In this document: piece after piece, positions 4,242 through 32,989 of the stretch
How positions within the stretch are numbered: position 1 is the first letter of the stretch
Layout of the letters: each line of letters opens with the position of its first letter
NCBI GenBank assembly: GCA_964291295.2
Contig: OZ219754.1
Location: forward strand, 1,216,001-1,280,000
DNA from: an uncultured Candidatus Binatia bacterium
Lineage (GTDB): Bacteria; Desulfobacterota; Binatia; UBA9968; JAJDTQ01
Length of the DNA: 64,000 nucleotides
Direction: 5' to 3'
Position numbers and translations under genes: made by a program
Notes under the pieces: model-generated
The model's input: only the letters and a program-made list of their open reading frames with translations
Told to the model about the DNA's origin: nothing
Databases searched by the model: none

Positions 4242-4299
4242 GGTGGATGGGGGGCGGGCGGGCGGGCGGCCCGCCGCGGGTCCCGGCCTGGCCCCCGGC

Positions 4300-14894: not shown

Positions 14895-17800
14895 CTACTT
14901 CTTCAGGCGCAGGTCGGCGCTGATTCCCTCCAGCAGCGCGTTGAGCGAAGACACCGATTCGGACGGCACCTTGGTGTCGCCGTCTCCCAGCATGATGTGA
15001 AGGTGGAACCGCAAGGGGACGCCGGCCGTGGCCGTAATCACGTCCGGCAGCGCTTCGACCAGGTCCTGCAGTTGGTTCGGTTCCAGGTCGGCGGCGCCGG
15101 CGAATGCGCCCTGCGGGACTGAAGGGTAATCGACTTCCGGGTCCGCAACACCGGGCGGTGGCGGTGCTGCCTCGGGTTCCCGCAGCGTCACGGCGGCCGC
15201 TCCGGCGAAATCGCACGGCCACCTGCCACTGTCCGGCGCCAGCGCCAGCCAGCGGGCGGCGAGCGCATCGGTGATGGCTTGGCGCAGGATCGGCCACGGC
15301 AGCGGAGCACCCAGTTGCACGGAGAGCGCGGCGGACAAGGCGAGTGCGCTGGTCGTCCCGTCCTTCCATGCCTCCGGCACTGAGTCCCTGGTCAGCCGCT
15401 CCACTCCCAAGGGCGGCACCGGCGAACGCAGCACCGCGGCATCCGTCAGCACGCCCGGCGGCAGCGCCTCACCCTGGACGCTTGCAGGGCCATGCACCAG
15501 CCACAGGATGCCTTGGCCGACAGCACCGGAAACGGCCGCTTCGACCGCGGCGCGCGGGCAGGCCGGTATGGCCACCGGCTCCTCGTAGCCCTCGCGTGGC
15601 ACGGTTACGGTGTGCCCTTCCGCGAAATAGGCGACGACATCGGCCACCGCCACCGACTCGCCGGCCCACAGTTCCGGCAGCATGCCCGGTGTCAGCGCTT
15701 CAGGGTCGAGTTCCGAAAGCCGCGTCCGGTCGGGCAGGAACAACTCAAGGGCGGGTTCCGCGCGGACGGTTTCGTCGATGGGCGTTCGCCACCAGCTCCT
15801 GACCGACCGGTCGGGCCGGACGAGGGATGCGACGAAGAGGCCGTCGCGCACGCCTCTGTCGATGGTGTCGAAGATCTCCTTGTGCCGGAGCATCTTCGGC
15901 AGCTTCGGATTCTCGGCGAACGCGCCCACCAGGTCCTTCACGCGACGCGACGGTTCGTCCGTGCGCCAGAGATCATAGGGTCCGCCCGGCAGCATCGCTT
16001 CGGCGCTGATGGCGGTGTCCTGGATACGGGTGCGCCGGTCCGCCTTCACGGTGGGGAACAGCGGCTCGGTGCCGACGGTCGCCTTGAACGCCTGGACCTC
16101 GTTGCTGTCATTGACGGTGACGACGATCGTCCACGCCTGGCGAATGGCATCGGGGATGCGCGTGCGTGCCTGCTTCGTCCAGTCGGCGAGCATCCCTTCG
16201 CGCACGGGCTCCTGCGTCCGGCCTTCGAGTTGGCGGCGCACCTCCTCCCAGCCCAGATACTCGCGAATGCGTTGGCGGGCGGCATCCAGGCCGTCGCGCG
16301 AGGGGGTCACCGCCACGATGGCGTTGCGGCGCGTGCGGGGACGGTCCGGTGCGGTGGTCTCGTCGATGAAGCGCCGCGCCGCCGCACTCGGCTTGCCCGA
16401 ATCGGAAACGGCTCCCGGCCCCAGGACGGCAAAATGGAATTCGCCGTCGTCCTGAATGTCGCGCGGCCGCTCCGGCAGCGTGTGCACGCGGGCGCCCGCC
16501 GCGGACGCGCCCTGGGTGAGGCTCTTCGTCCGCCGTACTTCGGCCAGGAGCGTCTCCTCGATGGACTCCGCCGGGACCCGGTTGGTACAGGCGTCGTGGT
16601 GCATCTGCCGGAGGTTGGGCCGGTTGCCGAGCCGCCACGCCCTGGGCAGCGCGCCGTCCGCCTTCGCGGTGCCGTCGAACTCCGCCTCGTCAAGGAACCA
16701 GGACATGTCCGTCCAGCGGCGCAGGCCCTTCTTGAGCTCGATGTGGTCCGGGCGGGTGGCGCCAACGAGCCGCATCAGCTCCGGCGTGTACGCCTTCTGG
16801 CCGATGGGCTGGGAACTCAGGAACGCGGCGCATACGGCCTGCTCCAACTCGCGAAACTTCAGTGCCGGCTGTTCGTCCTGGATGGTTCGCGCCTTGGCGA
16901 GTTCGCCTTCGAGGACGGCGCTCCAGTCGTTGCCGGCGCCATCCGTCACCTCGCGCGTGGCGGTGCCGGCGAGTTCCCGCGCCGCCTCGGCAAGGGCGCC
17001 GTCGCCGGGTGCGGGCAGGAACACGCCGGGTCCCACCAGCGGCGCGGTGTCCCAGGTCTCGGCGTCGCGCAGCGCGATGGCGAAGGTCCTGAGAATGCCG
17101 CGGGTGCGCTGAAATCCGTCGAGTTGAGTCCACTTGGTATAGAAGATATCGGTCAGGTCCGGATGGAACGGCCAGCCTTCGAGGAACCGCTGTTCCGCGG
17201 CCGTCCTGTCCTTGCGCACGGTCTCGTCGACTCTGGCGATATTGGCCACCGCGGCGTGGGCGTGCGGACGAAAGGAGTCCGATTCGGCGATGGATTCCGG
17301 CTCGAAGAAGCGTCGGCGCAGCACCTCGGCCACGTCCCGTTTCTGCACCGGCTGGACACCCTCCTCCCGCTGCCGGTTGAAGATGTCGAAGATCTGCCGG
17401 GTCAGTTCCTTGCCGACCGGGTCGCTTTTCGCAGGGTCGGACGCGAGCAGCGAGGCGACCAGGGCGCAGCGGTCGACCCTGGCCACCGCCTGGCACAGAT
17501 ACTGGAAGAAATCGATCAGCCGGGCGCGCCCGTTCTCCGCCATCGCCGCCTTCTCGCGGGCGTACATCAGCACTTCGTCGATCAGCACCAGGGTCGCGAG
17601 CCCGCGCGCCTGCGGCAGCGACAGCACCTCGGCGAGCAGCGGCTCGGCCGGCGGCGTCTCGCGCTCGTCGTTGGCGCCGTCGGGATGGAGCGCGCGCAAG
17701 CCCGCCTCGCCCGCGATCTGAAACGCGAGCACGCTCCAGGGATGCTTGAGCCAGCGAAGCTCATCCGCCGGTCCGCGCACTTCCATGCCCTTCTCGACAT

Positions 17801-18221
17801 CAAGCTTGTCGAAGCAGAGCGCCGCGACGCGCGACGATGGCAGGGTCGCGCCGACATGGGAGCGAAACTGCTCGACCGCGGGCAGCGCCGGCAACGACGC
17901 CGGGTCGTGCAGGAGGTGGCGCAGCGTTATCAGCGCATGGGTCTTGCCCCCGCCGTAGGTGAGTTCAAGCTGGCGGATGGCCTTGGTGTTCCTGCCGGTG
18001 AGGCGGAGCGCCACGTCACGCACAAGTTCCCGCAAGGGCAAGGTCGGCCAGGTCAGCGCGAAGAACCGGCCCGGGTCCTCGTACACCGGCCGCGCACCTT
18101 TCCTCATCACCACGTCGTGAAGGTCGGCGGCGAAGTCGGCGAGCGAGAGCTCGCCCGTGCGTACGTCCTCGCGCAATTTCACGACCTCGTGCCAGGGTGT
18201 CCATGGAAGGGTCTGCGCCAT
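14895..18221 (-). CDS. DUF499 family AAA+ ATPase (restriction-like defence system component)
   Basis: FAADL, TYGGGKTH Walker A, LVLIDE Walker B, LRRRFFE, WPFHP, FQRTRG.LR; ATG 18221 after GGAGG. Confidence 0.9.
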   Translation of the reverse strand: MAQTLPWTPWHEVVKLREDVRTGELSLADFAADLHDVVMRKGARPVYEDPGRFFALTWPTLPLRELVRDVALRLTGRNTKAIRQLELTYGGGKTHALITLRHLLHDPASLPALPAVEQFRSHVGATLPSSRVAALCFDKLDVEKGMEVRGPADELRWLKHPWSVLAFQIAGEAGLRALHPDGANDERETPPAEPLLAEVLSLPQARGLATLVLIDEVLMYAREKAAMAENGRARLIDFFQYLCQAVARVDRCALVASLLASDPAKSDPVGKELTRQIFDIFNRQREEGVQPVQKRDVAEVLRRRFFEPESIAESDSFRPHAHAAVANIARVDETVRKDRTAAEQRFLEGWPFHPDLTDIFYTKWTQLDGFQRTRGILRTFAIALRDAETWDTAPLVGPGVFLPAPGDGALAEAARELAGTATREVTDGAGNDWSAVLEGELAKARTIQDEQPALKFRELEQAVCAAFLSSQPIGQKAYTPELMRLVGATRPDHIELKKGLRRWTDMSWFLDEAEFDGTAKADGALPRAWRLGNRPNLRQMHHDACTNRVPAESIEETLLAEVRRTKSLTQGASAAGARVHTLPERPRDIQDDGEFHFAVLGPGAVSDSGKPSAAARRFIDETTAPDRPRTRRNAIVAVTPSRDGLDAARQRIREYLGWEEVRRQLEGRTQEPVREGMLADWTKQARTRIPDAIRQAWTIVVTVNDSNEVQAFKATVGTEPLFPTVKADRRTRIQDTAISAEAMLPGGPYDLWRTDEPSRRVKDLVGAFAENPKLPKMLRHKEIFDTIDRGVRDGLFVASLVRPDRSVRSWWRTPIDETVRAEPALELFLPDRTRLSELDPEALTPGMLPELWAGESVAVADVVAYFAEGHTVTVPREGYEEPVAIPACPRAAVEAAVSGAVGQGILWLVHGPASVQGEALPPGVLTDAAVLRSPVPPLGVERLTRDSVPEAWKDGTTSALALSAALSVQLGAPLPWPILRQAITDALAARWLALAPDSGRWPCDFAGAAAVTLREPEAAPPPPGVADPEVDYPSVPQGAFAGAADLEPNQLQDLVEALPDVITATAGVPLRFHLHIMLGDGDTKVPSESVSSLNALLEGISADLRLKK

Positions 18222-18392
18222 GTCGTCCTCCCTATGCAGGTTCGGAGACCGTCCGGACACGCCCGGCGAGGCGGATTGCGCGGCAACGTCGCGCAGACCG
18301 GACAGATCCGGACAATGGCCGGTCGATGGAGAACCGTTCTGCTGCGACCGTCCGTGTTCCGGACGGAGGGCGTTCGCAATGGCCGCTTCGAT

Positions 18393-19646
18393 TCATTGCG
18401 AAACCTGCGTTCTGTTGTCGGGCGAACGATGCGCGCCGGGTCGGGTGAACAGACGTACGATGAACCGTTCGCCCTCTTCGACAAGGTCCGGATCCGTTCC
18501 GTTGTGTTCTCTCATGCCGCGCACGATCTTTCTCGGTACCCCCATCCCCATGTGCTCAAGATAGCCGTAGTCCCGCATCACATCCTTCAGGAGCGGATTG
18601 CGCGCGGCCCTCACCCCGGTGCGCATGCGCTCGGGCGTGACCCCGTTCGGAAGTTTTCCGGGCGAGACGATCTCCAGCCGGTCTCGATATACCGTCAGTT
18701 CGACATCGGTGTTGGCCAGAAGGTAGTCTCTGTGGATCAGGGCGTTGACCACAGTCTCGCGAACTGCCTCGTCAGGATATGTCGGCCGCTCGACCCGGCG
18801 CGCGCCACTCTCAAGGACTGCGGTCACGGAGGTGTTGCGCTTGACGAACTCCAGCGCCTGCTCTACAAGGCCGGTTTCCAGAATATCTCCACGCCCGCCC
18901 ATGAGCGGCACCATGGGGCCGCGCAAAGCCCTTCGCTCCCTGGCCGCGTAGTCCTTCTCCGAGCCAGGGAAGGCCGCGGCGTCGATGCCCGCCTGCGGCA
19001 GGAACCGGTTGGGTGCGCTCCCGAACAGCAGCATCCCCGAGAGGCTTGCGCCGTCCTCGACCATGAACTCCGTGTTGACCAGCAGGGTCCGCCCTCCGGC
19101 CTCGTCGCCATCGGCCGGGACATCCTGCTGGCGAACCCGCGCGAAGTAGTCTCCGAGCCGGCGACGGTCGAGGTCGTTGAGGGTGGATCCGGAGACCGGC
19201 CGCAGGTCGGCGCGGAACGCACCGCGCTGCTGCAAGAGCCGGGCGAGCTCCTGCGGCGTAGCCTCCCGGCTCTGCGTGCCGCCCCGGATGTAGTAGTCGT
19301 GCCGGTTGTGGTGCCACCGGCTGTGCAAATCCACGCCGCGGCGCACACGCACCACCGCCACGTCGGCACCGGGGCGCACGTCCCGGACCGTCTCGAAGTA
19401 TGGGATGATGCCCGGCCGGATCTTGTCCCTGCACGCAGTCATCACCCACGCCTCCAGTCGGTCCCGCGTCAACCCGACGACGGTTCCGTCGTCGTCCACG
19501 CCGAGCAGGACCATGCCGCCTTCGAGTTTCGAGAACGCGACGAGTTCCTTGGCGAGATCCTGAGTCTGCAAAACGTCGCGCTTGAACTCGACGCCGGAGC
19601 TTTCGCCGTTGGCGATGATCTCCAGAAGCTCGGTCCGTGTCGTCAT
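18393..19646 (-). CDS. AlbA_2 (Schlafen-like) + HATPase_c_4 (RecG C-terminal-like) protein
   Basis: GESSGVEFK, ELVAF...GG.VLLGVDDDG, RE.VVNALIHRDY, SPGKLP, RNP, GMGVP; no C-terminal HTH evident. Confidence 0.88.
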   Translation of the reverse strand: MTTRTELLEIIANGESSGVEFKRDVLQTQDLAKELVAFSKLEGGMVLLGVDDDGTVVGLTRDRLEAWVMTACRDKIRPGIIPYFETVRDVRPGADVAVVRVRRGVDLHSRWHHNRHDYYIRGGTQSREATPQELARLLQQRGAFRADLRPVSGSTLNDLDRRRLGDYFARVRQQDVPADGDEAGGRTLLVNTEFMVEDGASLSGMLLFGSAPNRFLPQAGIDAAAFPGSEKDYAARERRALRGPMVPLMGGRGDILETGLVEQALEFVKRNTSVTAVLESGARRVERPTYPDEAVRETVVNALIHRDYLLANTDVELTVYRDRLEIVSPGKLPNGVTPERMRTGVRAARNPLLKDVMRDYGYLEHMGMGVPRKIVRGMREHNGTDPDLVEEGERFIVRLFTRPGAHRSPDNRTQVSQ

Positions 19647-19648
19647 GG

Positions 19649-22342
19649 TCAGAATCCGTACTTGGAGCGGCGCATCTCGAAGGCGTCCTTGCCGCCCTCG
19701 AGAGTTTCCTCGACCAGTTCCCGCACGGATGTCGAGTCGATGGAGCCCATATGTTCGCGCGCGATCTTCGCGTGACCGCCGGCGGTCTCGCCGGATGCGG
19801 CGAGACCAAGGATCAGTTCGGCGTCGCCGAGCACCGGGATATTCGCATTGTGTGTCGACAAAACGAACTGCCGGCGCCGCTTTTCCCGTCGCATGATGGG
19901 AACGATGACCTCGGTGATGAAGCGATTGTCGAGGTCGTCTTCGGGCTGGTCCACCACCAGCGGCGCCCTGGAGTCGAGCAGCAACAGCAGCAGGACGGCT
20001 GTCGCCTTCTGCCCTGTGGAGAGTGCGTCCAGCTCCCGCCACACCGGTTCGGCGTCCGGTGCCGTGTTCAGTTCGATGTGGGTCGTGGCGGGCAGTTCGA
20101 GTTCCTCGATCCTCATGTGCAGGTCGAGTCCGGCGTCGGCGATTCGTTCCGCGGCGCCCGGAGGAAGATCGTATTTCGAAATCAGGGCATCCTTGCCTTC
20201 CCGGCAGTGCCGCGCAAGCTCGGGCAGGGACAGAACATCGACATCATGAAGACGTCTCAGCGCAGGGGTGAGGTTGCCTCCGACGGTTCGCAGAAGCACT
20301 TCCAGCGGACTCCGGTCTCCGGCCATGGTGACGGTGACCCTTACCCGGTCTCGGAGCTTCCGGGAAATGCTGCGGGCTGCGTCGTCGATCTCCCGATATT
20401 CGCGCGTGTTGGCATCCTCCCATTCCGCGAGCAGTTTGCGGCGGTGCGCCTCATGTGTCTCCAGGTTCTTCACAAGATTTTCCCGCCGGTCCTTGAGCGG
20501 CCGCAACTCCTCGATCTGCCGGCGAAGGCGAATGAACTCCGCACCATCGATGCTGGACTTCTGAAGATCCCGCAGCAGTCGCTCATAGGCTTCTTCGATA
20601 CCTTTGCGATCCTCGTTCCATCGCTCCCTGATTTCCGCCATTGCCGCATCCGCTTCCGACAGGGCGTCGTCGAACCGGCTTGCGATCTCCTGGAGCCGTG
20701 AACTCAAGGTCGTGAGAACCTGGTCCATCCTGGCCGGGATGTCTGCATCGGGAAGCTCCTTGAGCGCTTTTTCCGACACGAAGGCCGCATCAATGGGAAG
20801 GGTCTCGGCGAGCTCCCTGCGGAGTGTCCGGACCGGCTCCAGACGTTCGCCCAGGATCGAGAACAGGGTCTCCTCCCTGACCAGACGGCTTTTCTCCTTG
20901 AGTCGTTCTTCCAGTCCCGCCTGCTGGAAGCGTTTCTGCGTCTCCTCCAGTCCGGGCAAGGCCGCCAGGCGCTCCTCCAGCGTTTCCAGTTCGCCCCGGG
21001 TGTCCAGGATCCGACGACGCGATTGCTCAAGCGCCATTCGAATTTCCGTCTTCCGACCGGAAAGCGACGGATCGCGTTCCGCAAACCGCTCCAGGAGCAG
21101 GGTGAGCCGCTCGGGGCTCCTTGCCAGTTCGGAGATCTCATGCTGGCCGAACACCTGCACGCCCGGCATCGTGTCCCGGGGCGACAAGGCCAGCAGTTCG
21201 CCCGTCCCGTCCCTTGCGGCGGGTGGATTGGGCACCGTGCGTTCAATGACGTATCGCGTCTCGGACGGGTGGTGCGAACGGACCAGCAGCGAGATTTTCG
21301 TTCCTGGCCGCAGGACGTGCCTGACGACCTCTTCGTGCGCCTTCCGCGCCTCGTCTCCCAGGGGTTCGAGGCCGAGCGCATAGCGCACGCTCTCGATCAG
21401 CGTGGACTTGCCGGTGCCGCGTCCGCCGATCAGGGTGTTGAGGTTGCCGTTGAAGTGGACCGAAGCGCCGTCCAGAAATCCGCCGTCCCAAGTCATTGCG
21501 AGGAGTTCGGCATGGGGTTCGGGCGGCGGGTCGCTGTTCAGTCGAACACGGGAATCCGGGTCGAGAAACGCCTGACGGAGCGCTTCGACCGAGACTTCCG
21601 ACATCTTGATGAAGCAGGAGGCGCTGGCCCGTTTCAGGTCTTCCGGACCGTTGACGTCCGAAGCATTCACGATCGCCAAGGCGCGCGCACGCGCGTGCCC
21701 GGCATCCTTGTTCTCGAGAATGGCCTTGAACCGTTGCGGCGCTTCCCCGACAGGCCCCGGCAGTGCACAGGCAAGCAGGTCGGGCGACTGCCAGACGGCG
21801 ATGCGGGCCTGGCCGCCGAGGGTTTGAAGCAGCCCTCCCTTTGAGGCCACATGCGCGGCCATGACCGTCGCCCCCCAGTCCCGCGCCCTTTTGAGCAGGT
21901 CCGTTGAATCGAGACTGCCCAGCGGGGACGGTTCGCTCGAATCGTGGACGCCGCACTCCCCGATGAACCTTTCCAGGTTTTCGTCCTCGTCCGGATCGAA
22001 CAAACACAGGAAAGGGACGCCGTCCTTCGCCACCGCCTCGAAGCCGCCGAACGCGAAAAGATCGGCCTCGCGGCAGGCCCGGACGAGTGCCCTGGGCGTC
22101 TCGACGCGGTAGTGGTCCGTGACGGCCACGACCTCGACGCCGGCTTCACGGCAGGCCCGGACGATCGCTTCGTTGTAGTCCGCTTCCGAGCGGAACTCCG
22201 TCGGTTTGTCATGTCGCTGGAGATAGGTGAACGGATTGATCTGCAGGGCACACCGGTAGAAACGGGCACCGTTCGGGAGCCGCTCGGCGGATGCCAGGCG
22301 TTCTGAACCCGTGATTGTCGAACCGGATGCTGTCATGGCCAT
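19649..22342 (-). CDS. PHP-domain + coiled-coil ABC ATPase (TrlF/Ppl-like defence protein)
   Basis: N-terminal PHP-like motifs (AVTDHY, AAHV, SD), IGGRGTGKST Walker A, long coiled coil, LSTGQK, DQPEDDLDN, STHNANIPVLGDAE, LEGG..AF. Confidence 0.88.
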   Translation of the reverse strand: MAMTASGSTITGSERLASAERLPNGARFYRCALQINPFTYLQRHDKPTEFRSEADYNEAIVRACREAGVEVVAVTDHYRVETPRALVRACREADLFAFGGFEAVAKDGVPFLCLFDPDEDENLERFIGECGVHDSSEPSPLGSLDSTDLLKRARDWGATVMAAHVASKGGLLQTLGGQARIAVWQSPDLLACALPGPVGEAPQRFKAILENKDAGHARARALAIVNASDVNGPEDLKRASASCFIKMSEVSVEALRQAFLDPDSRVRLNSDPPPEPHAELLAMTWDGGFLDGASVHFNGNLNTLIGGRGTGKSTLIESVRYALGLEPLGDEARKAHEEVVRHVLRPGTKISLLVRSHHPSETRYVIERTVPNPPAARDGTGELLALSPRDTMPGVQVFGQHEISELARSPERLTLLLERFAERDPSLSGRKTEIRMALEQSRRRILDTRGELETLEERLAALPGLEETQKRFQQAGLEERLKEKSRLVREETLFSILGERLEPVRTLRRELAETLPIDAAFVSEKALKELPDADIPARMDQVLTTLSSRLQEIASRFDDALSEADAAMAEIRERWNEDRKGIEEAYERLLRDLQKSSIDGAEFIRLRRQIEELRPLKDRRENLVKNLETHEAHRRKLLAEWEDANTREYREIDDAARSISRKLRDRVRVTVTMAGDRSPLEVLLRTVGGNLTPALRRLHDVDVLSLPELARHCREGKDALISKYDLPPGAAERIADAGLDLHMRIEELELPATTHIELNTAPDAEPVWRELDALSTGQKATAVLLLLLLDSRAPLVVDQPEDDLDNRFITEVIVPIMRREKRRRQFVLSTHNANIPVLGDAELILGLAASGETAGGHAKIAREHMGSIDSTSVRELVEETLEGGKDAFEMRRSKYGF

Positions 22343-22388
22343 GCCTTGTCCTTCGCCGGCGTTCGAACCGTTCGCTGCGTTGCTGGCC

Positions 22389-22826
22389 CTAACCGAGGTG
22401 GGTAATCTCGACACCACCCCAACGGTCGTTCAGATACTCCGCCACCAGTCGACGGTGGCAATGGTGCGGCTTGTCCTCGCTGCAAAGCAGGCAGCCGTAT
22501 GCAATGATCTCCTCCGGGATCAATTGCTCAATTTGTCGTTGGCGCATGAGTTCGAGGAAGCGGGCCTCGTAGGCTTCCCACGCACCTCCTCGCTTCTTGT
22601 ACTCGTCCAGCAGATCCTTCGTGGGTGCGAGTTCAGGCACGTGGACATATTCCATTCCACAGATCTCGGCGAGAAAGAATGCCAGGTCGTCGCGTTTGGC
22701 GAAGCCGGCGAGTTGCGACACGTTGTGGAGGCGGACATCCACCACGCGTCGAGCACCGGACTCGCGCAGCAGACCAAAGAATCGATCCGCGGACTTCCTG
22801 GTGAAACCGATGGTGAACACCTTCAT
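22389..22826 (-). CDS. DUF488 family protein (short form)
   Basis: FTIGFT.KSA..FF, VVDVRL, ELAP, CLLCSE..PHHCHRRLVAEYL. Confidence 0.9.
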   Translation of the reverse strand: MKVFTIGFTRKSADRFFGLLRESGARRVVDVRLHNVSQLAGFAKRDDLAFFLAEICGMEYVHVPELAPTKDLLDEYKKRGGAWEAYEARFLELMRQRQIEQLIPEEIIAYGCLLCSEDKPHHCHRRLVAEYLNDRWGGVEITHLG

Positions 22827-24500: not shown

Positions 24501-27500
24501 GGCCGTGTCTCCAGCCCGAGACTCGCCTGGCGCGGATCGGTGACGCCCGCGCGGGCGGCGATATGGTTGGACAGCGATTCGAGGATTGCGCGTTCCTCCG
24601 AGCCTGTCGGCGCCAATTCGATCAGCGCCTGCAGCAGTCGGGCGAACAGGGCGTGACGCGCGAGGCCGCTGTCGTCGACATGGTCGTTCACCTTGGCTTC
24701 GTCGCCGGCGCGCCAGAGGTGCATCAGCCGGTGCACCCGGTCGATGAGCGGCACGGGCCGGCCGCCCGGTCCTTCGTAGCCGAGCCACTTTGCCTTGCGC
24801 CGGGTCCAGGGCAGCAGCCTGACCTTGGTGCCGCCACCGGCGGTACTGTCATCCCCATCGCCGGTTTCGTCGTCGTCCTCCAGTTCGTCGGACGGCGTGC
24901 GGCCGGGGCGCGAGAGGAGGGCAAAGCGGTCGGAGAGGTCGCGGTCGGACAGATTGCAGGACAGCGCGTACAGGATGCAGGCCCCCACGGGCGCCTCGCC
25001 CAAGCCGAAATCGCCCCGGTGCAGCAGATAGTAGGTGGTGACGTCGTCGAGCCCGCTCGCGGCGTCTTCCTCTCCGTCGCCGGTGAGCACCCGGCCGACC
25101 ACGAAGTCCACCACCATGCGCCGCACCTCACGCAGAAATTCGGAGACCGTCATCACTGCGCCCGGCTCGTCGGCCTTCTTGACGACGGGATGCCGGGAGA
25201 AGGCTTCGAGCGCCGGCCCCGTCGCCGCCCACACGAAATCCGGTCCGCGAATGCCGGCATCCCAGAAGCCGCGCAGCCGGTGGGTGATGTTGGTGCGCAT
25301 CTCGGCGAGCACCGCAGCGTCCCATCCGGGTCCCGCCGGCGGGCGCTTGCGGCAGACGAGCCAGACCGAGGAGGCCAAGGCGGCCGAAGCCATCGCCCGT
25401 GTCCGCGTGGTCATCTCGGTGCGGATCGGCCAGGAGCCGTCGACGACGAAGCCGGCGCGGATCAGTGCCGCGACCAAGGTTTCCCAAGCATCGGGCGACT
25501 TGTTGGCGAACACGACGACCAAGCGCCCTTCCGGGTTCAGCGCCTCATGGCAGGCCCGGAAGGCGCGGGCCATGCCGTTTTCGTAGGTCTGTTTTGACAG
25601 TGCCTTGTCGCCTTCGAACCGACTGGCGTCGTCGATCAGCTCGCCGTCGCCGCTCGCCGCATTCCACTTCGGGCCGAGGGGGTCGGCGAATACCGGATCC
25701 GCGTCGGGCACGACGCCGCGTAGTGCGCGCCGCAGCCAGACATGGAAGAAGTCCATGAGGTCCGAATAGGGGATGGCGTCGTAGTAGGGCGGATCGGTGC
25801 AGATCAGGTCGAAACCGCCGGAAGCGGGGTCGATTGCGGACCGCCGCAACACACTTGCACCGGGTGCTGCCTTCGCGGCGTCCTGCAGATGTTTGACGAC
25901 TCGGGCAACCCATTCCAGTGCCCCGAGAAAGTTGCCCGACGCGCCCGATAGAGGATTCACTTCAGCGAAATCCCAGACGATTGGCAAGGCAAAGCGGGCA
26001 AAGGTGTGTCCCAGGTTCTCCCTGCTATTGTGCCACGAGCAGACGGTGCTGGAATAATCCACGAGTCGGTCCAGGCATACGGCAATGGAGGCCACTACTG
26101 CCTCGCGCCATTGCGTCGGGAGGTCTCCCATCCCGTCTGCCCCGGCGGCGCACCGGCGTATCTCCCGCAACACCGAGCCCAGCGCCAGAAGCTGCCGGTC
26201 GGTGAACAGCTTGGCCCACTGGTCGAGGCCGTAAAGCGGGATGCGAAAACCCAGCGCCTCCTTGCCCGGCAATCGCTCCGCCGGCAGCCCGAACGGAATG
26301 TCCGCATACAATGCTTCCAGTTCGCTGGCGGAGACCTCCGCAGCGCGTAGCTCCGCGTCCTCCGGCAGGCGGTATTCCTTGCCCTTCGGTCCGTCCACCA
26401 CCACCGCGGTCATCACGGCACCCATGCGCCCGGCGCGGCCCTCGAGGCGGATGTCCTCCATGGTCATGATTGCATGACATGAGGACAGGGGGCAGCGTGC
26501 GCCGCTGCGGCTCATGGTGCCGGTGCCGAGATGCTTGTCGTGCTCACGACGCTGCGCCGCGTTGCCGCCCACGGGCGGAACCCCGGCCTTGACTCCGAAG
26601 ATGACGCCGCTCCTGTCCGCATTCGGCGTCATCGTGAGCAGGACGCGCTTGTTGTCCTTCTTGCAGAGCCAGAGCGTCTTGAGCAGCGGCAGTGTCGCCC
26701 GACAGCCCTTGCAGCGCACCGCGCGCGCCCAGAGCCAAGCCACCGCCGGCTTGGCCACCCAGCGCGGGTTGCGCGGATCCTTGAGGTAGGTTGCGTCGAA
26801 CCCGGCGTTCAGGGGTTCGACGTCGGTATTGCCGGCATCGTCCGGTTCCAGCCGTACAAGCGGTCGCTCCTCGAACGGCCTGCCACCGGGTGCCAGCGCC
26901 TGGAATGACGCATAGGTCGGATAGCGCTGCGCCAGCGCCGCGCGGACGCGGGCCAGTACGAGCCGGCCCCATGCGCGCACCTGCCAGGCGAGGTCGGCGG
27001 CGAAGAGGTCGCCATCGACCGACGGGGTGCGGTCGATGAGTGCCGGTTCGCGCTTGCCGTCCTCGCCGAAGCCGAGCGCCTCAAGCTGACGGGTGAGCGT
27101 CTTGCCCTTGAGACCCTTGGCCTTCAGGAACGCTCTCATGAGATCCGGGTCGGTGCGCGCGAACTCGGGCAGCGGCAGGGTCTTGCCCGCCAACCGCCGC
27201 GGATAGTCCAGTGTACACTTGAGGATGAACCAGGCCACCGGGTTGATGTCCATGGCGGTGGCTTCGCAGCCGAGCCGCATCGCCTCCAGCGGGATTGCTC
27301 CGCCGCCCGCGAACGGGTCCAGCACCTTGGGTGCGCGCCCGCCGTATGCTTTGCGGATGCGGACGCGGAACCAGTCGAGGTCCGGGCCGCCCTCGCGCCC
27401 CCAGTGCAGGATGCCGTCCCTGGTCTCGCGCCGGCGCCGTTCGGCTTCCCGCCCTTCCCGCCGTTCGGCCTTGACCGGCTCGCCAACCTCGCCCGCGAGC

Positions 27501-27718
27501 CGGCGGTAGATTTCCCGGCGCTCCGTGGCGTTGCCCGGGTCGGGCAGCAGCGTCGCGATCAGCGCCGCCCGGCAAGCCGCCAGCGGTCGCCGCGCCGGCC
27601 AGATATGCAGCGTCGAGATATGCCCATGCCGCACGGTCTTCTCGTGCACCGAGTCGAGCGAAACCTGCTCCAGTGGAAAATCGGCCTCGATCAGGCGCGT
27701 GTCGTCGGCGGTGGTCAT
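24497..27718 (-). CDS. DUF1156 adenine-specific DNA methyltransferase
   Basis: LHIWPARRPLAACRA, LDPFAGGGAIPLEAMRLG (motif I), TDPPYYD (motif IV), CxxC zinc ribbon. Confidence 0.93.
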   Translation of the reverse strand: MTTADDTRLIEADFPLEQVSLDSVHEKTVRHGHISTLHIWPARRPLAACRAALIATLLPDPGNATERREIYRRLAGEVGEPVKAERREGREAERRRRETRDGILHWGREGGPDLDWFRVRIRKAYGGRAPKVLDPFAGGGAIPLEAMRLGCEATAMDINPVAWFILKCTLDYPRRLAGKTLPLPEFARTDPDLMRAFLKAKGLKGKTLTRQLEALGFGEDGKREPALIDRTPSVDGDLFAADLAWQVRAWGRLVLARVRAALAQRYPTYASFQALAPGGRPFEERPLVRLEPDDAGNTDVEPLNAGFDATYLKDPRNPRWVAKPAVAWLWARAVRCKGCRATLPLLKTLWLCKKDNKRVLLTMTPNADRSGVIFGVKAGVPPVGGNAAQRREHDKHLGTGTMSRSGARCPLSSCHAIMTMEDIRLEGRAGRMGAVMTAVVVDGPKGKEYRLPEDAELRAAEVSASELEALYADIPFGLPAERLPGKEALGFRIPLYGLDQWAKLFTDRQLLALGSVLREIRRCAAGADGMGDLPTQWREAVVASIAVCLDRLVDYSSTVCSWHNSRENLGHTFARFALPIVWDFAEVNPLSGASGNFLGALEWVARVVKHLQDAAKAAPGASVLRRSAIDPASGGFDLICTDPPYYDAIPYSDLMDFFHVWLRRALRGVVPDADPVFADPLGPKWNAASGDGELIDDASRFEGDKALSKQTYENGMARAFRACHEALNPEGRLVVVFANKSPDAWETLVAALIRAGFVVDGSWPIRTEMTTRTRAMASAALASSVWLVCRKRPPAGPGWDAAVLAEMRTNITHRLRGFWDAGIRGPDFVWAATGPALEAFSRHPVVKKADEPGAVMTVSEFLREVRRMVVDFVVGRVLTGDGEEDAASGLDDVTTYYLLHRGDFGLGEAPVGACILYALSCNLSDRDLSDRFALLSRPGRTPSDELEDDDETGDGDDSTAGGGTKVRLLPWTRRKAKWLGYEGPGGRPVPLIDRVHRLMHLWRAGDEAKVNDHVDDSGLARHALFARLLQALIELAPTGSEERAILESLSNHIAARAGVTDPRQASLGLETRP

Positions 27719-28728
27719 GAGGTGGCGTCGCGCGACGGTTCGGGCTCCAGGTCGATGGGAGTGAATGGGGGGTCATACCTGACCTGCCCGTCAGGATGTC
27801 TCTCGATGATGACGGCACTTGACAATTCACAACCTCGTCCACGCAGGAATTGTGACAGAGACTTCAAATAATCCATACGAAACGTGCACTCCGCAATCGT
27901 GAAAAGCTCTTTTCCGGAACGTGTCAGAGGGAGCATGGGCACACTTACGGATGGGTCAGTTTTTGATGTGGCTTTTGCTGATATTATCAAAAGTCTATCT
28001 TGGTATAACAGCCTTCTTCCCTGTTCATCTGCTTCGCCAAGAGGGAAACGATTTGAAAAAGACGAATCGACATGAAGAAGGCCAGCCTCTTGAAGGCTAA
28101 TCAAATTGCCCAAAGACAGCTCTTGGTGACCTCCGCTGCGGTTCCTGTAATAAAATATGAATTCACCATTGATGACGAAATCGCATATGCGCTCGAACGT
28201 CCTTGCGTCTTTGCTCGTCATGTTCCTTAGAACGTCCAGCGTCCGAAGCGAAGTTCGACCCGGCTCCCTGACCTCTCCCGCAAGGATCCTGGCCCAGATC
28301 TTACGCATGTCCTCCGACGAAATATCCTGAACGTTGTCGAAGAACCGTGCGGTCCAGTCGGGATCGGGTTCGTGGTCATCGACATCCTTGCCGTCCAGTT
28401 CAGCGGCGGCGCCCCGGACCACCGAGGCGATGTTGGTGTGCCGCTTCTTCTCCTGGAACTCGATCCGCTGTCGAATGCTATCGGGGTCCATTTCCAGTAC
28501 GCCGCGAACCTCATTGTACGGCTTGAGGAGGGTACGGCGCGCCTCGTCCTGAGCATGGGCGATGAGTTTCAGGCTGTCGGCATCGGCCTTTGTCTCGATG
28601 ATCTTGGCCTTCGCTTCCCGTCGCGCCTTCCAGGGAGCCAGCATCGGCCCCGCCACCGCGCCGATGCCGCTGGCGACGTACTTCACGAGCAATTCGACCG
28701 CCGGTATCCTGACGTTTAGGTTCACCAC
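27715..28728 (-). CDS. DUF2806 family protein
   Basis: GAAGGAG RBS before GTG 28728; E.K...NI..V, PDPDWTARFF..VQDIS.EDM..IWARILAGE...PG..SLRTL..L. Confidence 0.82.
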   Translation of the reverse strand: MVNLNVRIPAVELLVKYVASGIGAVAGPMLAPWKARREAKAKIIETKADADSLKLIAHAQDEARRTLLKPYNEVRGVLEMDPDSIRQRIEFQEKKRHTNIASVVRGAAAELDGKDVDDHEPDPDWTARFFDNVQDISSEDMRKIWARILAGEVREPGRTSLRTLDVLRNMTSKDARTFERICDFVINGEFIFYYRNRSGGHQELSLGNLISLQEAGLLHVDSSFSNRFPLGEADEQGRRLLYQDRLLIISAKATSKTDPSVSVPMLPLTRSGKELFTIAECTFRMDYLKSLSQFLRGRGCELSSAVIIERHPDGQVRYDPPFTPIDLEPEPSRDATS

Positions 28729-28977
28729 TCCGGTTGCTCCTTCACTCAATGCATCGCCGCGCGGCCGTCGCAGCGACAGCGATTCCTTGTCCACTTCCAT
28801 CCAGACGATCTTGCCGTCCTCGAATATGGCGATGGCGTTGCCGTTCTCCGCAGCCCGGCGGCGGGCGACTTCAGCGGCCCTCCGCAGGGCTGCTTCGGCG
28901 CCGGCCATGTCCGGATCCGGGTCGTGAGTGGGGGTGAGTCTTTCCTGCTGCCTGTCGTCCGACTTCTGTGGCTTCAT
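28729..28977 (-). CDS. Small partner (antitoxin-like) of the zeta-like ATPase; has no stop and reads in-frame into DUF2806
   Basis: ATG 28977 overlaps the ATPase stop; AALRRAA..ARRRAAE.G..IAIFEDGKIVW pattern resembles small genes that follow these ATPases. Confidence 0.6.
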
Positions 28978-29497
28978 GGGTTTTCTGCCTTCGCCAGCAG
29001 CACGGGGGCGATCCCGGAACTGTCGTATATTGCCCATCCGTCCACAAGATCGCGCCAGACGCGCTCGAAGTTGCGCCGGCCCGCACGGAGTCTTCGACGA
29101 ACCACCGTCTCGGGCACGCCGTGCCTGCCCTCCGAAACCCGCTGCCGGACGCGGGATATCGCCATTTCCGGCGTCGGGAGCCGCAGGAACAGCAGTTTCA
29201 CACGATAGCCCCGCTTTCGCCAGAGCGGAATCGAACGGGCGTGGCCACGGCCGCTCAAGGTCGTCTCGAAGGCGAAGCTCTCACCTCGGGTCGCATGGAA
29301 GTGGATTGTTTCGATCACCAGACGGCCGGCCCGGAACGCGACCGACGATGGGCGGAACGGACTCAACCCGCGGCGATCGAATCCGCATTGACAAAGGCCG
29401 GACAGTTCGCTTCGTTCTGCAGGAACTCCGTCGCGAACGTCGTCTTTCCCGCCCCGTTCGGCCCGGCAATGATCAGTATCTTCCGGTGCGCGTTCAT
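28974..29497 (-). pseudogene. Zeta-toxin-like (AAA_33) ATPase with a 1-nt frameshift near 29367
   Basis: Frame from ATG 29497: [23 protein letters not shown]; continues in another frame as LSPF..SFAFETTLSG..RV.QRV..G.H.VP..YDSS. Confidence 0.85.
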
Positions 29498-29642
29498 ACG
29501 CCTTGCTCAAGCTCAAGCGCTTTCGGACAGGCCGGTGTGATGCCGCGGGATCGGTTCGCGGCGGTGCACCGGTCGCACGCCGAGCGTCGCGAGGCAGGGA
29601 CCTTGCCCGGTGTTGCCGTGCTTTCATGGACAGGCCAGGCTT

Positions 29643-32600
29643 TCATGCCTTGGCCTCGTCCAGGCTCGCCGACAGTATCTCGGACGCCGGGATGACAACT
29701 CCGCCCTTGGCTTTGGCCAGCAGGCGGCCGAAGGGGTCGCGGACCTTGATCAGGCGGGGCCGGACCGTGGCGCAGTCGAAGACCACGTAGAGCCAGTAGC
29801 GGTCCCGCAGGTTGCAGGCCGCTGCCCATTCGTTCTCCTTCACTTCAACGGAACCGGAGCCGGCGCGGCCCTTGACCTCGATGGCGCGTTCCTCCGCCGG
29901 CCCGCGCGCCCCGCCGGGGCGAAGCGAGCGAAGGTCGAAGCCCGGCCAGTCGCCGAGCCCTTCCCGGCGCGCCAATTCGGGCCGCGACACGTCCCGGACC
30001 GTGGCACCGGCGGCTTCCTCGTGGGCGCGGGCGAGGTCCATGGCGACCGCTTCGACCTCCGCGTCATGCCGCTGGCGCTCTTCCGGATCGTCCGTCGGCA
30101 CCACCAGGGCGTGGACGATCATCGCGATTTCGCCAGGCTCGATCCCGGACGGCTCCGCTTCGAGCAGTGCCAGAACGCGCTTCTTCTCCGCGACGAGCCG
30201 GCTCTGTTCTTCCCTCACCATGGCGAGCTGTGCTTGCGCGCCGGCATCGCCCCGGTGCGCGTCGTCGCTCAAACGCCGCCGCCGCACCATCAGTTCGGCG
30301 ACCTTGTGGTTGTGGCCGCGCGTGGTCCACCGGCGCCGTTCCGGCAGCGACGCTTCGGTGCGCACGCGATGTTCCGCGGCCATGCGCCGTGCGGTCTTCC
30401 ACACCCACTCCTCCGCCTGCTTCGTCAACCGGTGCGCCGCACGGGCCAACGGCACGCCGCCCGGTGCGATGTCGCGAGCTCCGCGCAGCAACAGCAGGTG
30501 TTCCGGCGGGCACGGCGCAATGGCGCCGTCGCTCTCCTGCCGCAGTCCGATGGGGCGGGTCTCGACGGTCTCCATCCGTTCCCCTTCGCGCCGCACCACC
30601 GACACCTGCGCCAGGTGAAACAGGTAGGGTGCCTCCGCGTCGGGATCGACAAAGACGGCCCCTCGCCTCGCGTCGCCGCCCCGCCGGGTCAGGAAGGCGG
30701 TGCGGAAGCGGTCGAACACCGGCTCGCCGGGATGCATCCAGATGGCGTTGTCGCCGCTTTTCGGGCGGTGGACCGTCAGGCGCCCCCGCATCGTTTCGGG
30801 GTAGACGTCCATGGCGCCGCGTATGGCGTCGGCGGCGCGCGGCAGGTCGGGCGCCAGGTCGAAGACGCCGCCCGGATCGCCCTCCAGCCGAAGGTCGATG
30901 AGGGGTGCCGCGGTCTCGACGAAACGACGGACATAGCCGGGCAGCAGCCGGCGATACGCCTCCCGTTCCAGGGTCGCGTTGATCTCGGGGAGACGGTCGC
31001 GCACCGCGACGCTGCCGTACAGGGTACGCTCCCGCTTCTCGATGGCGCCCACCCGCTCCGGCGTCAGGTGCTGGCCCAGTGTCTCGGCAGCCTCCCGGGC
31101 GCCGTCGTCCGTCGCCGCCATCTCCAGATAGCTCTTGAGCGGCATGTTCTCGAACAGGCGCCCGACCACGTCGAAGACCTTTTCCGAACCGAGTTGCCTG
31201 CGGATCGTCTCAAGCTTGTCGAGAAGCACCCCGAGGACTCGCCCTTCGCGCGTCTCTCCGGCGATCAGGTTGACGATCACCACGGGGTCGCGCGTTTGCC
31301 CATAGCGGTGGATGCGTCCCATCCGCTGTTCGAGGCGCGCGGGATTCCAGGGCACGTCGTAGTTTGCCATCCGCCAGCAGAACTGGAGATTGATGCCCTC
31401 CCCGGCGGCGTCGGTGGCAATCAGGCAGCGCGCGCCGCCGCGGTCGGCCGGGCGCCGGAAAAACTCCACCTGAGCTTCCCGTTCCCGGTAGTCGAGCCCG
31501 CCGTGGATCAGAGCGACCTGGCCCGTGAAGCCGAGCCCCTCCAGGCGGTGCACCAGAAATGTGGCGGTGTCGCGATGCTCGGTGAAAACGATGATTTTCT
31601 CCCGGGACAAGGCCGGATCGGCCATGACCGCGCGCAGTTTTTCGAACTTGGAGTCCTCGCCGGCCTCGGCGAGTTGGCGCGCCCGGACGAGAAGGTTCTC
31701 GACCGTGGCGCGTTCCTCCCGAAGTTCCGCCAGAGTGGTCATGGCGAGACCGCCGAGCGCGGTCTCCTCGAATGCCTCGTGACGCTCCGGCGCATCCGCG
31801 TCGCCCATCTCCTCGTCGGCGGTGTGCGATTCGAAGAAATCGGGTGTACCGGCGATGCGTGCCTGGCGCCGTTCCATCTCGTCGGTGCGGCCTGCGCGCA
31901 CCAGTTCGATGGCCTCGTCCAGGCGGTCGAGGCGGCGTTCGAAGGAGCGCATCAGCGCATGGGTGGAGCTGGCGAGGCGACGCTGGAACACGCTCATGGC
32001 GAGACGCGCGGCCGAACGGTTCAGAATGGATGCCTTGTTGTAGGTCTCGGCGATGTAGTGCGTCGTCGCGTCGTAGAGTTCCCGTTCGGCCGGGCTCAGG
32101 GCGTAGCTCAGGGTATCGCAGCGCCGTTGCGGGTAGAGCGGCCGGCCGTCGAAGCGGACCATCTCCTCCTTGGTCCGGCGGATGAAGTGGCGGTGTCGGT
32201 GTGCTTCGGAAAAGTCCTTGAACGCGTCGAAGTTCGCCAGCGCGTCCGGGGCAAGAAGGCGCCACAGGCAATAGTAGGGGAAGTCCTTGCCCATGTGCGG
32301 CGTCGCGGTCAGCAGCAGAAGGTTCTGTGCCGACCAGCCGAGGCGCCACCGTTCATCGCTCACCGGCAGGCCGGCCAGGGCCTCGGCGAGGCGGTAGCGG
32401 TCGGTCTTGCGGACATGGAAGTCCTGCTCCCGGTCGGCGGCCAGCTTGTGGGCTTCGTCGAACACCACGAGGTGGTAGGGGTCTGCGGCGCCCGAGGCCA
32501 CCGCCTCGCGCATCCGCGCGACCATGCGCGCACCGGCGAGGGTGTCGATGCTGACGATGAGGCGGTCGCTCCCCGGCCCGACGAACGGATTGCCGGTGCG

Positions 32601-32975
32601 GGCGTCGGCGCCGTGAACGATCCGGAACGGAAGCCGGAACAGCGTGCGCATCTCGCGTTCCCAGTTGCCCACCAGGCCGGCCGGGGGCACCACCAGGACG
32701 CGCGTGACCAGACGGCGAGCGAGCGTTTCGCGAAGATAGAGGCCGGTCATGATGGTCTTGCCGGCGCCGGCATCGTCGGCGAGAAGGAACCGCAGCGGCG
32801 CTTGGCCGAGCATGTGCTCGTAGACGGCGATGCGCTGGTGCGGCAAGGGGTCGATGGAGGAGATCTCGATCGCGAAGGCGGGATTGAAGAGGTGGCCGCA
32901 GGCGAGGCGGGTGGCTTCGGCCACCGCCACCACCGCCTCCGGTTTCGCCGCAAAGTCGAGCATCGGCACCCGCAT
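29643..32975 (-). CDS. SNF2-family helicase with C-terminal DUF3883 nuclease-like domain
   Basis: PLPHQ, LLADDAGAGKT, FDEAHK, LLLTATPH, ATDAAGEGINLQ, WNP.RLEQRMGRIHRYGQ; C-terminal GFDL.S..IEVKGR..NEW..YWLYVV. Confidence 0.93.
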   Translation of the reverse strand: MRVPMLDFAAKPEAVVAVAEATRLACGHLFNPAFAIEISSIDPLPHQRIAVYEHMLGQAPLRFLLADDAGAGKTIMTGLYLRETLARRLVTRVLVVPPAGLVGNWEREMRTLFRLPFRIVHGADARTGNPFVGPGSDRLIVSIDTLAGARMVARMREAVASGAADPYHLVVFDEAHKLAADREQDFHVRKTDRYRLAEALAGLPVSDERWRLGWSAQNLLLLTATPHMGKDFPYYCLWRLLAPDALANFDAFKDFSEAHRHRHFIRRTKEEMVRFDGRPLYPQRRCDTLSYALSPAERELYDATTHYIAETYNKASILNRSAARLAMSVFQRRLASSTHALMRSFERRLDRLDEAIELVRAGRTDEMERRQARIAGTPDFFESHTADEEMGDADAPERHEAFEETALGGLAMTTLAELREERATVENLLVRARQLAEAGEDSKFEKLRAVMADPALSREKIIVFTEHRDTATFLVHRLEGLGFTGQVALIHGGLDYREREAQVEFFRRPADRGGARCLIATDAAGEGINLQFCWRMANYDVPWNPARLEQRMGRIHRYGQTRDPVVIVNLIAGETREGRVLGVLLDKLETIRRQLGSEKVFDVVGRLFENMPLKSYLEMAATDDGAREAAETLGQHLTPERVGAIEKRERTLYGSVAVRDRLPEINATLEREAYRRLLPGYVRRFVETAAPLIDLRLEGDPGGVFDLAPDLPRAADAIRGAMDVYPETMRGRLTVHRPKSGDNAIWMHPGEPVFDRFRTAFLTRRGGDARRGAVFVDPDAEAPYLFHLAQVSVVRREGERMETVETRPIGLRQESDGAIAPCPPEHLLLLRGARDIAPGGVPLARAAHRLTKQAEEWVWKTARRMAAEHRVRTEASLPERRRWTTRGHNHKVAELMVRRRRLSDDAHRGDAGAQAQLAMVREEQSRLVAEKKRVLALLEAEPSGIEPGEIAMIVHALVVPTDDPEERQRHDAEVEAVAMDLARAHEEAAGATVRDVSRPELARREGLGDWPGFDLRSLRPGGARGPAEERAIEVKGRAGSGSVEVKENEWAAACNLRDRYWLYVVFDCATVRPRLIKVRDPFGRLLAKAKGGVVIPASEILSASLDEAKA

Positions 32976-32989
32976 ACCCGCCTTGCCGC

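Follow-up and report, generated by a model that had tools for sequence, protein, structure and literature searches.

A predicted Hma anti-phage locus with stacked cargo modules in an uncultured Candidatus Binatia bacterium

Hma is an anti-phage system of three genes, hmaA, hmaB and hmaC, and is reportedly owed to Payne 2021, as cited in Payne 2024. In the available excerpts of PMC12839542, it was renamed the Type-1 DUF499-centred system related to bacteriophage exclusion (BREX). Type-1 systems are described there as having a fusion of helicase and restriction endonuclease and no DUF3780. The latter was reported as specific to Type-2 DUF499-centred systems with an HKD/PLD helicase (present in 98% of them). 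A model resembling restriction-modification (RM) was put forward for such systems as a proposal (same excerpts). In excerpts of Liu 2024 (PMC11232893), nuclease and helicase motifs of HmaA were both required against T4. Here, a DNA stretch of 64,000 nucleotides (nt) from an uncultured Candidatus Binatia bacterium (assembly GCA_964291295.2, contig OZ219754.1, positions 1,216,001 to 1,280,000, forward strand; hereafter the window) was analysed, with emphasis on an Hma locus at 14895-32975.

Hma loci are also described as carriers of other genes. In Payne 2024 (bioRxiv 10.1101/2024.01.29.577857, seen in part), embedded genes were reported for 931 of 1485 Hma systems and formed the basis of a discovery method. 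According to Liu 2024 (PMC11232893, excerpts), 66.5% of hma loci contain insertions, and the term 'defence gene insertion hotspot' was used. An AAA_21 ATPase gene and an unannotated gene were placed between hmaB and hmaC, and Ppl was listed among the inserts. The locus studied here is very probably a complete Hma system whose two junctions exchange independent defence modules. Evidence for this came from its gene content and from a comparison with related loci.

Gene order and backbone genes

All credible genes between 14895 and 32975 were located on the minus strand and formed one co-oriented string. The order of transcription was hmaA, a zeta-like kinase gene, its small partner gene, a DUF2806 gene, hmaB, an ABC ATPase stump, PDC-M45 genes A, B and C, TrlF, TrlG and hmaC. 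Two cargo slots separated the backbone genes, slot 1 between hmaA and hmaB (27.7-29.6 kb) and slot 2 between hmaB and hmaC (18.2-24.5 kb). Coordinates, orientation, the three backbone genes and the two slots had been proposed previously from the sequence alone (the original prediction) and were borne out by Pfam and PADLOC matches and by the map of open reading frames (ORFs). The same source had listed eleven co-oriented, mostly overlapping genes. Their orientation was confirmed and their overlap roughly so, but eleven is a count of ORFs and the number of intact genes was smaller.

Overlaps of 4 nt (ATGA) were present at five junctions (zeta-like kinase/partner, DUF2806/hmaB, hmaB/ATPase stump, M45A/M45B and M45B/M45C). 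Among the non-overlapping junctions, TrlF and TrlG were separated by a 2-nt gap and the others by 46, 145 and 171 nt. Twelve gene units were counted. Four were damaged, namely the frameshifted kinase gene, the partner gene lacking its stop codon, the truncated ATPase gene and M45A with an in-frame TAG. hmaA, hmaB, hmaC, TrlF, TrlG, DUF2806, M45B and M45C were full length with intact motifs. The G+C content was about 68% for the window and lower in the cargo (0.60-0.64) than in the backbone (0.66-0.70).

hmaA (29643-32975, minus strand) was apparently intact and encodes an SNF2 helicase of 1110 amino acids (aa) with a C-terminal NOV_C nuclease domain (formerly DUF3883; PD-(D/E)XK). It matched the PADLOC model HmaA with E = 8e-160 over profile positions 69-1131 of 1176, and Pfam SNF2-rel, Helicase_C and NOV_C. 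Motifs GAGKT72, DEAH173, TATP223 and QRMGR550 were found, together with nuclease residues D1014...E1033-V-K1035...E1049. In a comparison of spacing without alignment, D1014/E1033-x-K1035/E1049 resembled D1084/E1104/K1106/E1121, the residues mutated by Liu et al.

hmaB (24497-27718, minus strand), likewise apparently intact, encodes a DUF1156 N6-adenine DNA methyltransferase of 1073 aa (PADLOC HmaB, E = 3e-116; Pfam DUF1156, E = 7e-18). Its motifs DPFAGGG134 and DPPY642 were invariant in an alignment of 34 sequences. One HmaB relative of 1200 aa (P0064) had AAA_15, SMC_N and AAA_21 matches at one end and looks like a read-through fusion with the following ATPase gene. hmaC (14895-18221, minus strand; apparently intact) encodes a DUF499 AAA+ ATPase of 1108 aa (PADLOC HmaC, E = 2e-63; Pfam DUF499, E = 1e-16) with Walker A GGGKT90 and Walker B VLIDE212.

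Judged by domains and motifs, the locus is a complete, canonical Hma system, alias Type-1 DUF499-centred BREX-related system. By analogy with published work and from its intact motifs, HmaB would methylate adenines of the host DNA. HmaC, a putative STAND/ORC-like ATPase with a variable C-terminus, would recognise foreign DNA. HmaA would attack it as an SNF2 translocase with a PD-(D/E)XK nickase.

The original prediction had classed the locus as a DUF3780-less variant. This was not upheld, since nothing is missing from a canonical Type-1 Hma locus and all tests for Type-2 failed. DUF3780 was not matched in 13 gene-frame ORFs (E ≤ 0.01) or, with both strands read from stop to stop, in the other 91 ORFs of 90 codons or more (E ≤ 0.001). 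It was not seen either in 38 cargo representatives from related loci scanned with Pfam, the 80 relatives described below not having been scanned for DUF3780 as such. In Pfam searches, the helicase was a fusion of helicase and restriction endonuclease with NOV_C and had no HKD/PLD domain. The NCBIfam equivalogs of the DUF3780 type stayed at 6-16% of their cut-offs (DUF1156_antiphage 157 of 1000 bits, DUF499_antiphage 67 of 1200 bits, phospholipD_antiphage 143 of 1100 bits). It is exceedingly improbable that the locus derives from a DUF499/DUF1156/DUF3780 system by loss of DUF3780. Such an origin would fit the shared DUF499 and DUF1156 domains and weak PADLOC matches to DUF499 (4e-11), DUF1156_MTase (1e-34) and PLD_Helicase (2e-26). 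The Hma models, however, scored far better, NOV_C stands in place of HKD/PLD, the Type-2 equivalogs scored low, and DUF3780 is confined to Type-2 in the excerpts of PMC12839542.

Cargo variation among related loci

Related loci were collected with an HmaB alignment of 34 relatives and fetched with 10-kb flanks. The best 80 of at least 592 confirmed loci (at least 604 matched stretches) were used. They came from Alpha- and Gammaproteobacteria, Vicinamibacteria, Dehalococcoidia, Caldilineaceae, Latescibacterota, Binatia, Spirochaetia, cyanobacteria and others. Of the 80 loci, 78 contained HmaA and 68 contained HmaC, always in the order A-B-C, and 55 were complete in the fetched DNA. In these 55, slot 1 measured 5-6813 bp (median 2013) and slot 2 measured 10-6756 bp (median 1908). 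Cargo was present in 53 loci, and both slots were shorter than 200 bp in just two. The 55 loci had 52 different cargo layouts; repeats were limited to L003/L004 (identical and from one metagenome-assembled genome), L046/L047 and the two empty loci.

The 429 cargo ORFs fell into 199 clusters. All clusters with at least two members and singletons of at least 150 aa were represented in a set of 120, of which 47 matched PADLOC models (E ≤ 1e-5; three of the 47 were backbone fragments). Models matched were HEC-01A/B, HEC-07, Gabija, Avs2, Dsr2, CBASS, type II/IIG RM, DRT8 and NsnA, as well as short prokaryotic Argonaute (pAgo) with SIR2- or TIR-APAZ, long pAgo with a Cas4-like nuclease, PDC-S19, PDC-S32, PDC-M07B and PDC-M71. 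Among cargo ORFs with 100 aa or more, 214 of 231 were on the operon strand. On the HmaB tree, changes of cargo were about as frequent as the mean of shuffled controls (ATPase 18 versus 18.9, zeta-like kinase 9 versus 10.2, TrlF 3 versus 4.0).

DNA similarity between the window and the related loci dipped inside all three backbone genes. Dips were located in the C-terminal third of HmaC (14750-15750; 16-34 loci versus 63), in part of HmaB (26000-26250; 54 loci versus 75) and in part of HmaA (30250-31000; 30-42 loci versus 61-71). These dips fit the variable recognition regions described for Type-1 systems in excerpts of PMC12839542.

The idea that the slots are hotspots collecting defence genes was thus confirmed by 52 layouts in 55 loci and by much cargo that is recognisable defence machinery. 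Tabulation of the genes between the backbone genes, which the original prediction had suggested as a check, showed that cargo is not invariant. The landing-pad idea is correct yet already in print (Payne 2024; Liu 2024); the census of 55 loci agrees with the printed claim, which needs no further proof. The further claim that the cargo is uncharacterised is partly right; it does not apply to PDC-M45, a catalogued candidate, or to TrlF, an NCBIfam family. Slots of at least 4 kb were present in 19 of the 55 loci, and screens limited to three embedded genes per gap miss such stacked loci. In Payne 2024, the screen accepted no more than three genes in each gap (bioRxiv 10.1101/2024.01.29.577857, seen in part). 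It would not have scored the window locus, because slot 2 exceeds this number.

In the proposed explanation, independent modules would be swapped in and out at both intergenic junctions, in the orientation of the operon and often with translational coupling. Five modules would be present here, namely the kinase with its partner, the DUF2806/Abi-alpha-like gene, the ATPase stump, PDC-M45 and TrlF-TrlG. From orientation and overlaps, the cargo would be co-transcribed with the backbone. Exchange would take place by recombination of incoming hma DNA with the conserved backbone genes or with the conserved 5' end of the ATPase gene. Recombination through such homology is the most likely route, given that the locus has neither a recombinase nor a tRNA gene nor flanking repeats.

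Several points weigh against this explanation. The slot genes might encode accessory subunits that work with HmaABC in this clade as sensors, regulators or back-up effectors, which we consider quite unlikely. Auxiliary or back-up effectors in such loci are described in excerpts of PMC12839542. The ATPase was present in slot 2 of 29 of the 55 complete loci and directly preceded hmaC together with a protein of about 190 aa in 18. This frequency and the ATGA coupling of cargo to backbone (DUF2806/hmaB and hmaB/ATPase) suit a semi-core accessory better than free cargo, and the pair is reported from all Halomonas hma loci in excerpts of Liu 2024 (PMC11232893). In the window, however, the backbone is intact although only 61 codons of the ATPase remain. 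DUF2806 showed phylogenetic inertia, with 8 changes on the HmaB tree and thus fewer than in all 200 shuffles (minimum 9). Shared function with HmaABC is harder to reconcile with 52 layouts and two loci without cargo, with much cargo made up of complete known autonomous systems, and with the occurrence of PDC-M45 and TrlF-TrlG in unrelated contexts.

The remaining points against exchange of modules by a complete Hma system concern method and function. The HmaB tree was a quick single-gene FastTree with 56 rows. Cargo ORFs were called by a greedy longest-ORF procedure with plus-strand bias, which is crude in DNA of high G+C content, and were clustered by single linkage. No recombinase, significant repeat or other direct trace of an exchange mechanism was found at the locus. 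The four lesions lie in one locus of a single assembly and could partly be assembly errors, especially the homopolymer frameshift. The Hma activities in the window (methylation, restriction and phage resistance) are predicted by analogy. In excerpts of Liu 2024 (PMC11232893), T4 propagated with HmaB remained unprotected and HmaA defended by itself; this negative HmaB experiment weakens the RM-like model, so that even published work does not establish such a division of labour. With these points taken into account, a complete Hma system exchanging modules at its two junctions remains our preferred explanation.

Cargo genes of the two slots

In slot 1, the first cargo gene after hmaA encodes a zeta-toxin-like P-loop kinase (28974-29497, minus strand). 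It is frameshifted, with one nucleotide missing at a short G run (29367-29369) and a premature TGA at 29363-29365. The N-terminal 44 aa, among them the P-loop GPNGAGKTT, are read in a different frame from the remainder. Pfam Zeta_toxin matched the C-terminal part with E = 5e-6. Seven intact kinase homologues read ...ADSIAAGLSPF... straight across the break, and most members of the cluster were 174 aa long. A homologue in locus L002 matched AAA_33 (2e-10) and Zeta_toxin (6e-10). In tblastn searches, the C-terminal piece was found in 19 and the N-terminal piece in 16 of the 80 loci; the kinase cluster spanned 15 loci.

The small antitoxin-like partner gene (28750-28977, minus strand; about 76 codons) overlaps the kinase stop codon by ATGA. 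Its own stop codon is replaced by TTG (28747-28749), where locus L022 has TAG, and for this reason it reads on into DUF2806. In six related loci, the kinase gene was immediately followed by the partner as a gene of its own (67-97 aa). The window thus lacks an intact P-loop kinase with a binding partner, the kinase being frameshifted and the partner stop-less. For complex prediction, the intact pair from L022 was used instead of the broken gene of the window. The pair scored 0.87 (best control 0.00) and passed a mark that 116 of 157 solved complexes and 2 of 215 mismatched pairs had attained. At least 93% of contacts were common to the runs, the predicted local distance difference test score (pLDDT) of the partner was at least 78, and contacts included kinase residues 17-30 around the P-loop. 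Binding of the L022 kinase and partner is supported by this model; solved complexes of the epsilon/zeta type exist, so that the pass may reflect likeness to them. Kinase and partner are probably a toxin-antitoxin-like abortive module, degenerate in the window.

The DUF2806 gene (27715-28728, minus strand; Abi-alpha-like, 337 aa) was apparently intact, with a GTG start at 28728 and GGAG upstream. Pfam DUF2806 matched with E = 3e-36 and Abi_alpha weakly (1.5e-3). Homologues were 322-360 aa long and started at the equivalent position. They were found by tblastn in 20 of the 80 loci, always in slot 1 and often alone. In loci L046, L047 and L049, kinase and partner genes were followed in slot 1 by short-pAgo genes in place of DUF2806, and in L051 the DUF2806 gene was interrupted. 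The structure model of the DUF2806 protein was mediocre (mean pLDDT 69, predicted template modelling score 0.63, residues 22-85 below 50). The best hit of a fold search against the PDB had E = 0.55 and gave no functional lead. Kinase, partner and DUF2806 had no match in PADLOC (PADLOC-DB v2); they add up to three recurrent slot-1 genes, found in 15 to 20 of the 80 related loci, that are outside this collection.

Slot 2 here contained three stacked modules with 7 ORFs. The first is an ABC ATPase stump (24320-24500, minus strand) that comprises the first 61 codons with Walker A and overlaps the hmaB stop codon by ATGA. Its open frame continues to 24123 without homology. The ATPase was matched by tblastn in 41 of the 80 loci, with up to 97% identity over aa 1-61. 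In about 40 loci with a blastn high-scoring segment pair over this stretch, homology stopped at 24309-24325. Full-length relatives were about 425 aa long and usually followed by a protein of about 190 aa, which had no Pfam, PADLOC or NCBIfam match. This pair was the commonest slot-2 cargo elsewhere (for example L024:14135-14722). With codons 1-61 only and no partner gene, the window does not contain a complete ABC-ATPase pair of the HEC-01/PDC-M07-like kind.

The stump is followed by an insert with PDC-M45 (22359-24319, minus strand), which has a 169-nt leader and a G+C content of 0.57-0.61. The insert had no tblastn match in the 80 loci and was window-specific among them. Beyond it, window positions 14980-22358 were colinear with L003/L004 at 77% identity; there, the TrlF-like gene directly follows hmaB. 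The remaining stump of 61 codons indicates that the older ATPase pair was displaced by newer cargo through a break inside the old gene. This is a clear case of cassette replacement leaving a gene stump and bears on the turnover of hotspots.

PDC-M45 gene A (DuOB; 23443-24150, minus strand) matched PADLOC PDC-M45A in two halves (N half, 2e-42, profile 1-96; C half, 7e-41, profile 103-226). An in-frame TAG was located at 23842-23844, a position occupied by W in 7 of 11 aligned intact homologues. A homology search with gene A gave 2949 sequences (E ≤ 0.001). Those in the list of 120 were 224-238 aa long and covered 94-98% of the read-through query, spanning the break. Gene B (DUF488; 22823-23446, minus strand; PADLOC M45B, 4e-82) and gene C (DUF488; 22389-22826, minus strand; PADLOC M45C, 4e-75) follow. 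All three genes therefore matched their models in the order A-B-C with ATGA overlaps, with A carrying the TAG. On an Allochromatium plasmid, the same trio with an intact DuOB gene (223 aa) was found in a CRISPR-associated neighbourhood. The literature searched contained nothing relevant on DuOB or on DUF488 and phage beyond a DUF488-HTH fusion, which binds CTP according to the excerpt available.

The third module of slot 2 consists of two intact genes. The TrlF-family ATPase gene (19649-22342, minus strand) encodes 897 aa with an N-terminal region without assigned fold and an ABC/SMC-like ATPase. NCBIfam TrlF_fam_ATP (NF045780) matched with 493 bits (cut-off 350) over the entire profile (1-944 of 944). 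Assignment of this ATPase to Ppl was rejected (Ppl_antiphage 157.5 bits versus a cut-off of 1000; PADLOC Ppl, E = 4e-37). The TrlG-like gene (18393-19646, minus strand; 417 aa) begins 2 nt past the TrlF stop codon and has Pfam AlbA_2 (Schlafen) and HATPase_c_4 domains. When plasmids were searched with the TrlG-like protein by tblastn, 185 records were matched, and 17 of the 25 rows listed had the annotation 'TrlF family AAA-like ATPase' at the match. TrlF and TrlG were adjacent in all four plasmid regions opened (L081, L083, L084 and L085). One pair was flanked by pglX and pglZ in a BREX-1 system, two were inside type I RM operons and one stood alone.

This embedding in three different host systems supports TrlF-TrlG as a defence module ('guilt by embedding') and such a role would explain the odd published growth phenotype. 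The word 'phage' is absent from the available text of the paper on the temperature restriction locus (PMC7554251). No other paper on a 'temperature restriction locus', or on TrlG in that sense, was found in the literature searched, which also contained nothing relevant on HATPase_c_4 with phage. A defence role of TrlF-TrlG is consequently a lead that is not in print within these searches.

Taken jointly, TrlF-TrlG may be a widespread growth-arresting two-gene anti-phage module, kinase/partner and DUF2806 may be further Hma-embedded defence modules, and the locus may represent cargo turnover in the act. This joint reading is offered tentatively, as its chances fall somewhat short of even. If true, TrlF-TrlG would travel as cargo of Hma, BREX and type I RM systems, and the growth stop of Photorhabdus at 36°C would be an autoimmune side effect. 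A new cassette would have broken an old one, and displaced or redundant modules would decay while the backbone stays intact. The kinase/partner and DUF2806 modules would be defence modules missing from PADLOC-DB v2.

Surroundings and comparison with described systems

The locus is flanked by a luciferase-like monooxygenase gene (13715-14773, plus strand) and a 2-oxoglutarate (2OG)-Fe(II) oxygenase gene (32990-33904, minus strand). Both are housekeeping or metabolic genes and had no tblastn match in any of the 80 related loci. The ATG of hmaA is 14 nt past the stop codon of the oxygenase gene (32976-32989), and there is no upstream intergenic region of the island's own. The promoter of the island must for this reason be inside or upstream of the oxygenase gene. 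A scan for promoters of the sigma-70 consensus and for terminators gave 3 promoter-like sites (1.7 expected from shuffled sequence) and 5 terminator-like sites (12.9 expected), which is about or below chance. The lone promoter-like site on the minus strand (24319-24291) is at the start of the PDC-M45 insert, matches the consensus at 9 of 12 positions and proves nothing.

A scan for tRNA genes found none across the window, and Rfam had no match in 14000-34000. Repeat searches around the island and its cassettes gave short imperfect matches (longest direct repeat 33 nt, 73% identity), so that att sites or transposon ends are unsupported. A 50-codon ORF at 29494-29646, ATGA-coupled at both ends, was considered as an antitoxin-like gene and rejected. 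It had no conserved counterpart (best tblastn E = 0.5), and in related loci the kinase gene starts 24-72 nt after hmaA, which counts against its being a gene.

The four damaged cargo genes, the lack of a recognisable promoter and the position of hmaA 14 nt after its upstream gene could also indicate a decaying relic, in which the cargo lesions are real and the whole island is being lost or silent. We regard this as unlikely. The three backbone genes, TrlF, TrlG, DUF2806, M45B and M45C are full length with their motifs, the frameshift in a homopolymer could be an assembly error, and the promoter scan covers a single consensus.

PADLOC matches among 29 other ORFs of the window were limited to the luciferase-like gene and a UvrD-like helicase (GajB-like). 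The locus is on this account a lone system without a wider defence island. The helicase (37471-40713, minus strand; 1080 aa; PADLOC GajB-like, E = 1e-77) had no Pfam match in its first 510 or so residues, and no GajA-like neighbour was seen. A protein of 617 aa (52296-54149, plus strand) consists mostly of RTX calcium-binding nonapeptide repeats (13 stretches) and coincides with a GC-skew peak of 0.17-0.22 at 51-54 kb. The ORF at 3-4307 (minus strand) exceeds 1435 aa and is open-ended, running off the window; its product combines several ABC cassettes with the DNA-binding and interaction domains of UvrA.

Type-2 BREX-related systems share the DUF499 ATPase, the DUF1156 methylase and the RM-like logic with the window locus; they differ in having DUF3780 and an HKD/PLD helicase, and the locus has neither. 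The slot-1 kinase and partner resemble epsilon/zeta (PezAT) in combining a P-loop kinase of Zeta_toxin/AAA_33 similarity with a small partner predicted over the P-loop region. In classical epsilon/zeta modules, the antitoxin gene comes first. In the window, by contrast, the partner is downstream of the kinase, the zeta similarity is weak (E = 1e-6 to 1e-10) and the kinase is frameshifted. Belisama, in the part of its description available, is an integron cassette among anti-phage systems and has a DUF2806 domain with Abi-alpha similarity. The window gene has both features in common with Belisama, a likeness by description and not by sequence.

The PDC-M45 trio is a phage-defence candidate of PADLOC-DB v2, from which the window trio differs by its interrupted gene A. 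The window TrlF shares an ABC-ATPase C-terminus with Ppl, but is below the Ppl cut-off and had a TrlG partner in all contexts seen. The trlR-trlF-trlG locus of Photorhabdus laumondii, known from excerpts of PMC7554251, encodes a TrlG with AlbA_2 and HATPase_c_4 domains. The window likewise has a TrlF-family ATPase followed by an AlbA_2 and HATPase_c_4 protein with the same domain order, matched by domains and not by alignment. Unlike the Photorhabdus locus, the window pair is embedded in a defence operon and has no small trlR-like regulator upstream, since the gap of 46 nt between M45C and TrlF is too short for a gene.

Compared with described Hma loci, slot 2 of the window differs in stacking three modules, and several cargo genes are broken. 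The N-terminal HEPN of HmaC, present in 1370 of 2446 Type-1 taxa according to excerpts of PMC12839542, is not found in the window HmaC. The three proteins, their domains, order and strand, the cargo between genes, an AAA_21-type ATPase after hmaB and a Ppl-like cargo gene are the same as in Hma. The locus is an ordinary example of this known system, and it adds two modest leads beyond the literature searched, namely TrlF-TrlG as cargo with a putative defence role, and the slot-1 set of zeta-like kinase, partner and DUF2806 genes.

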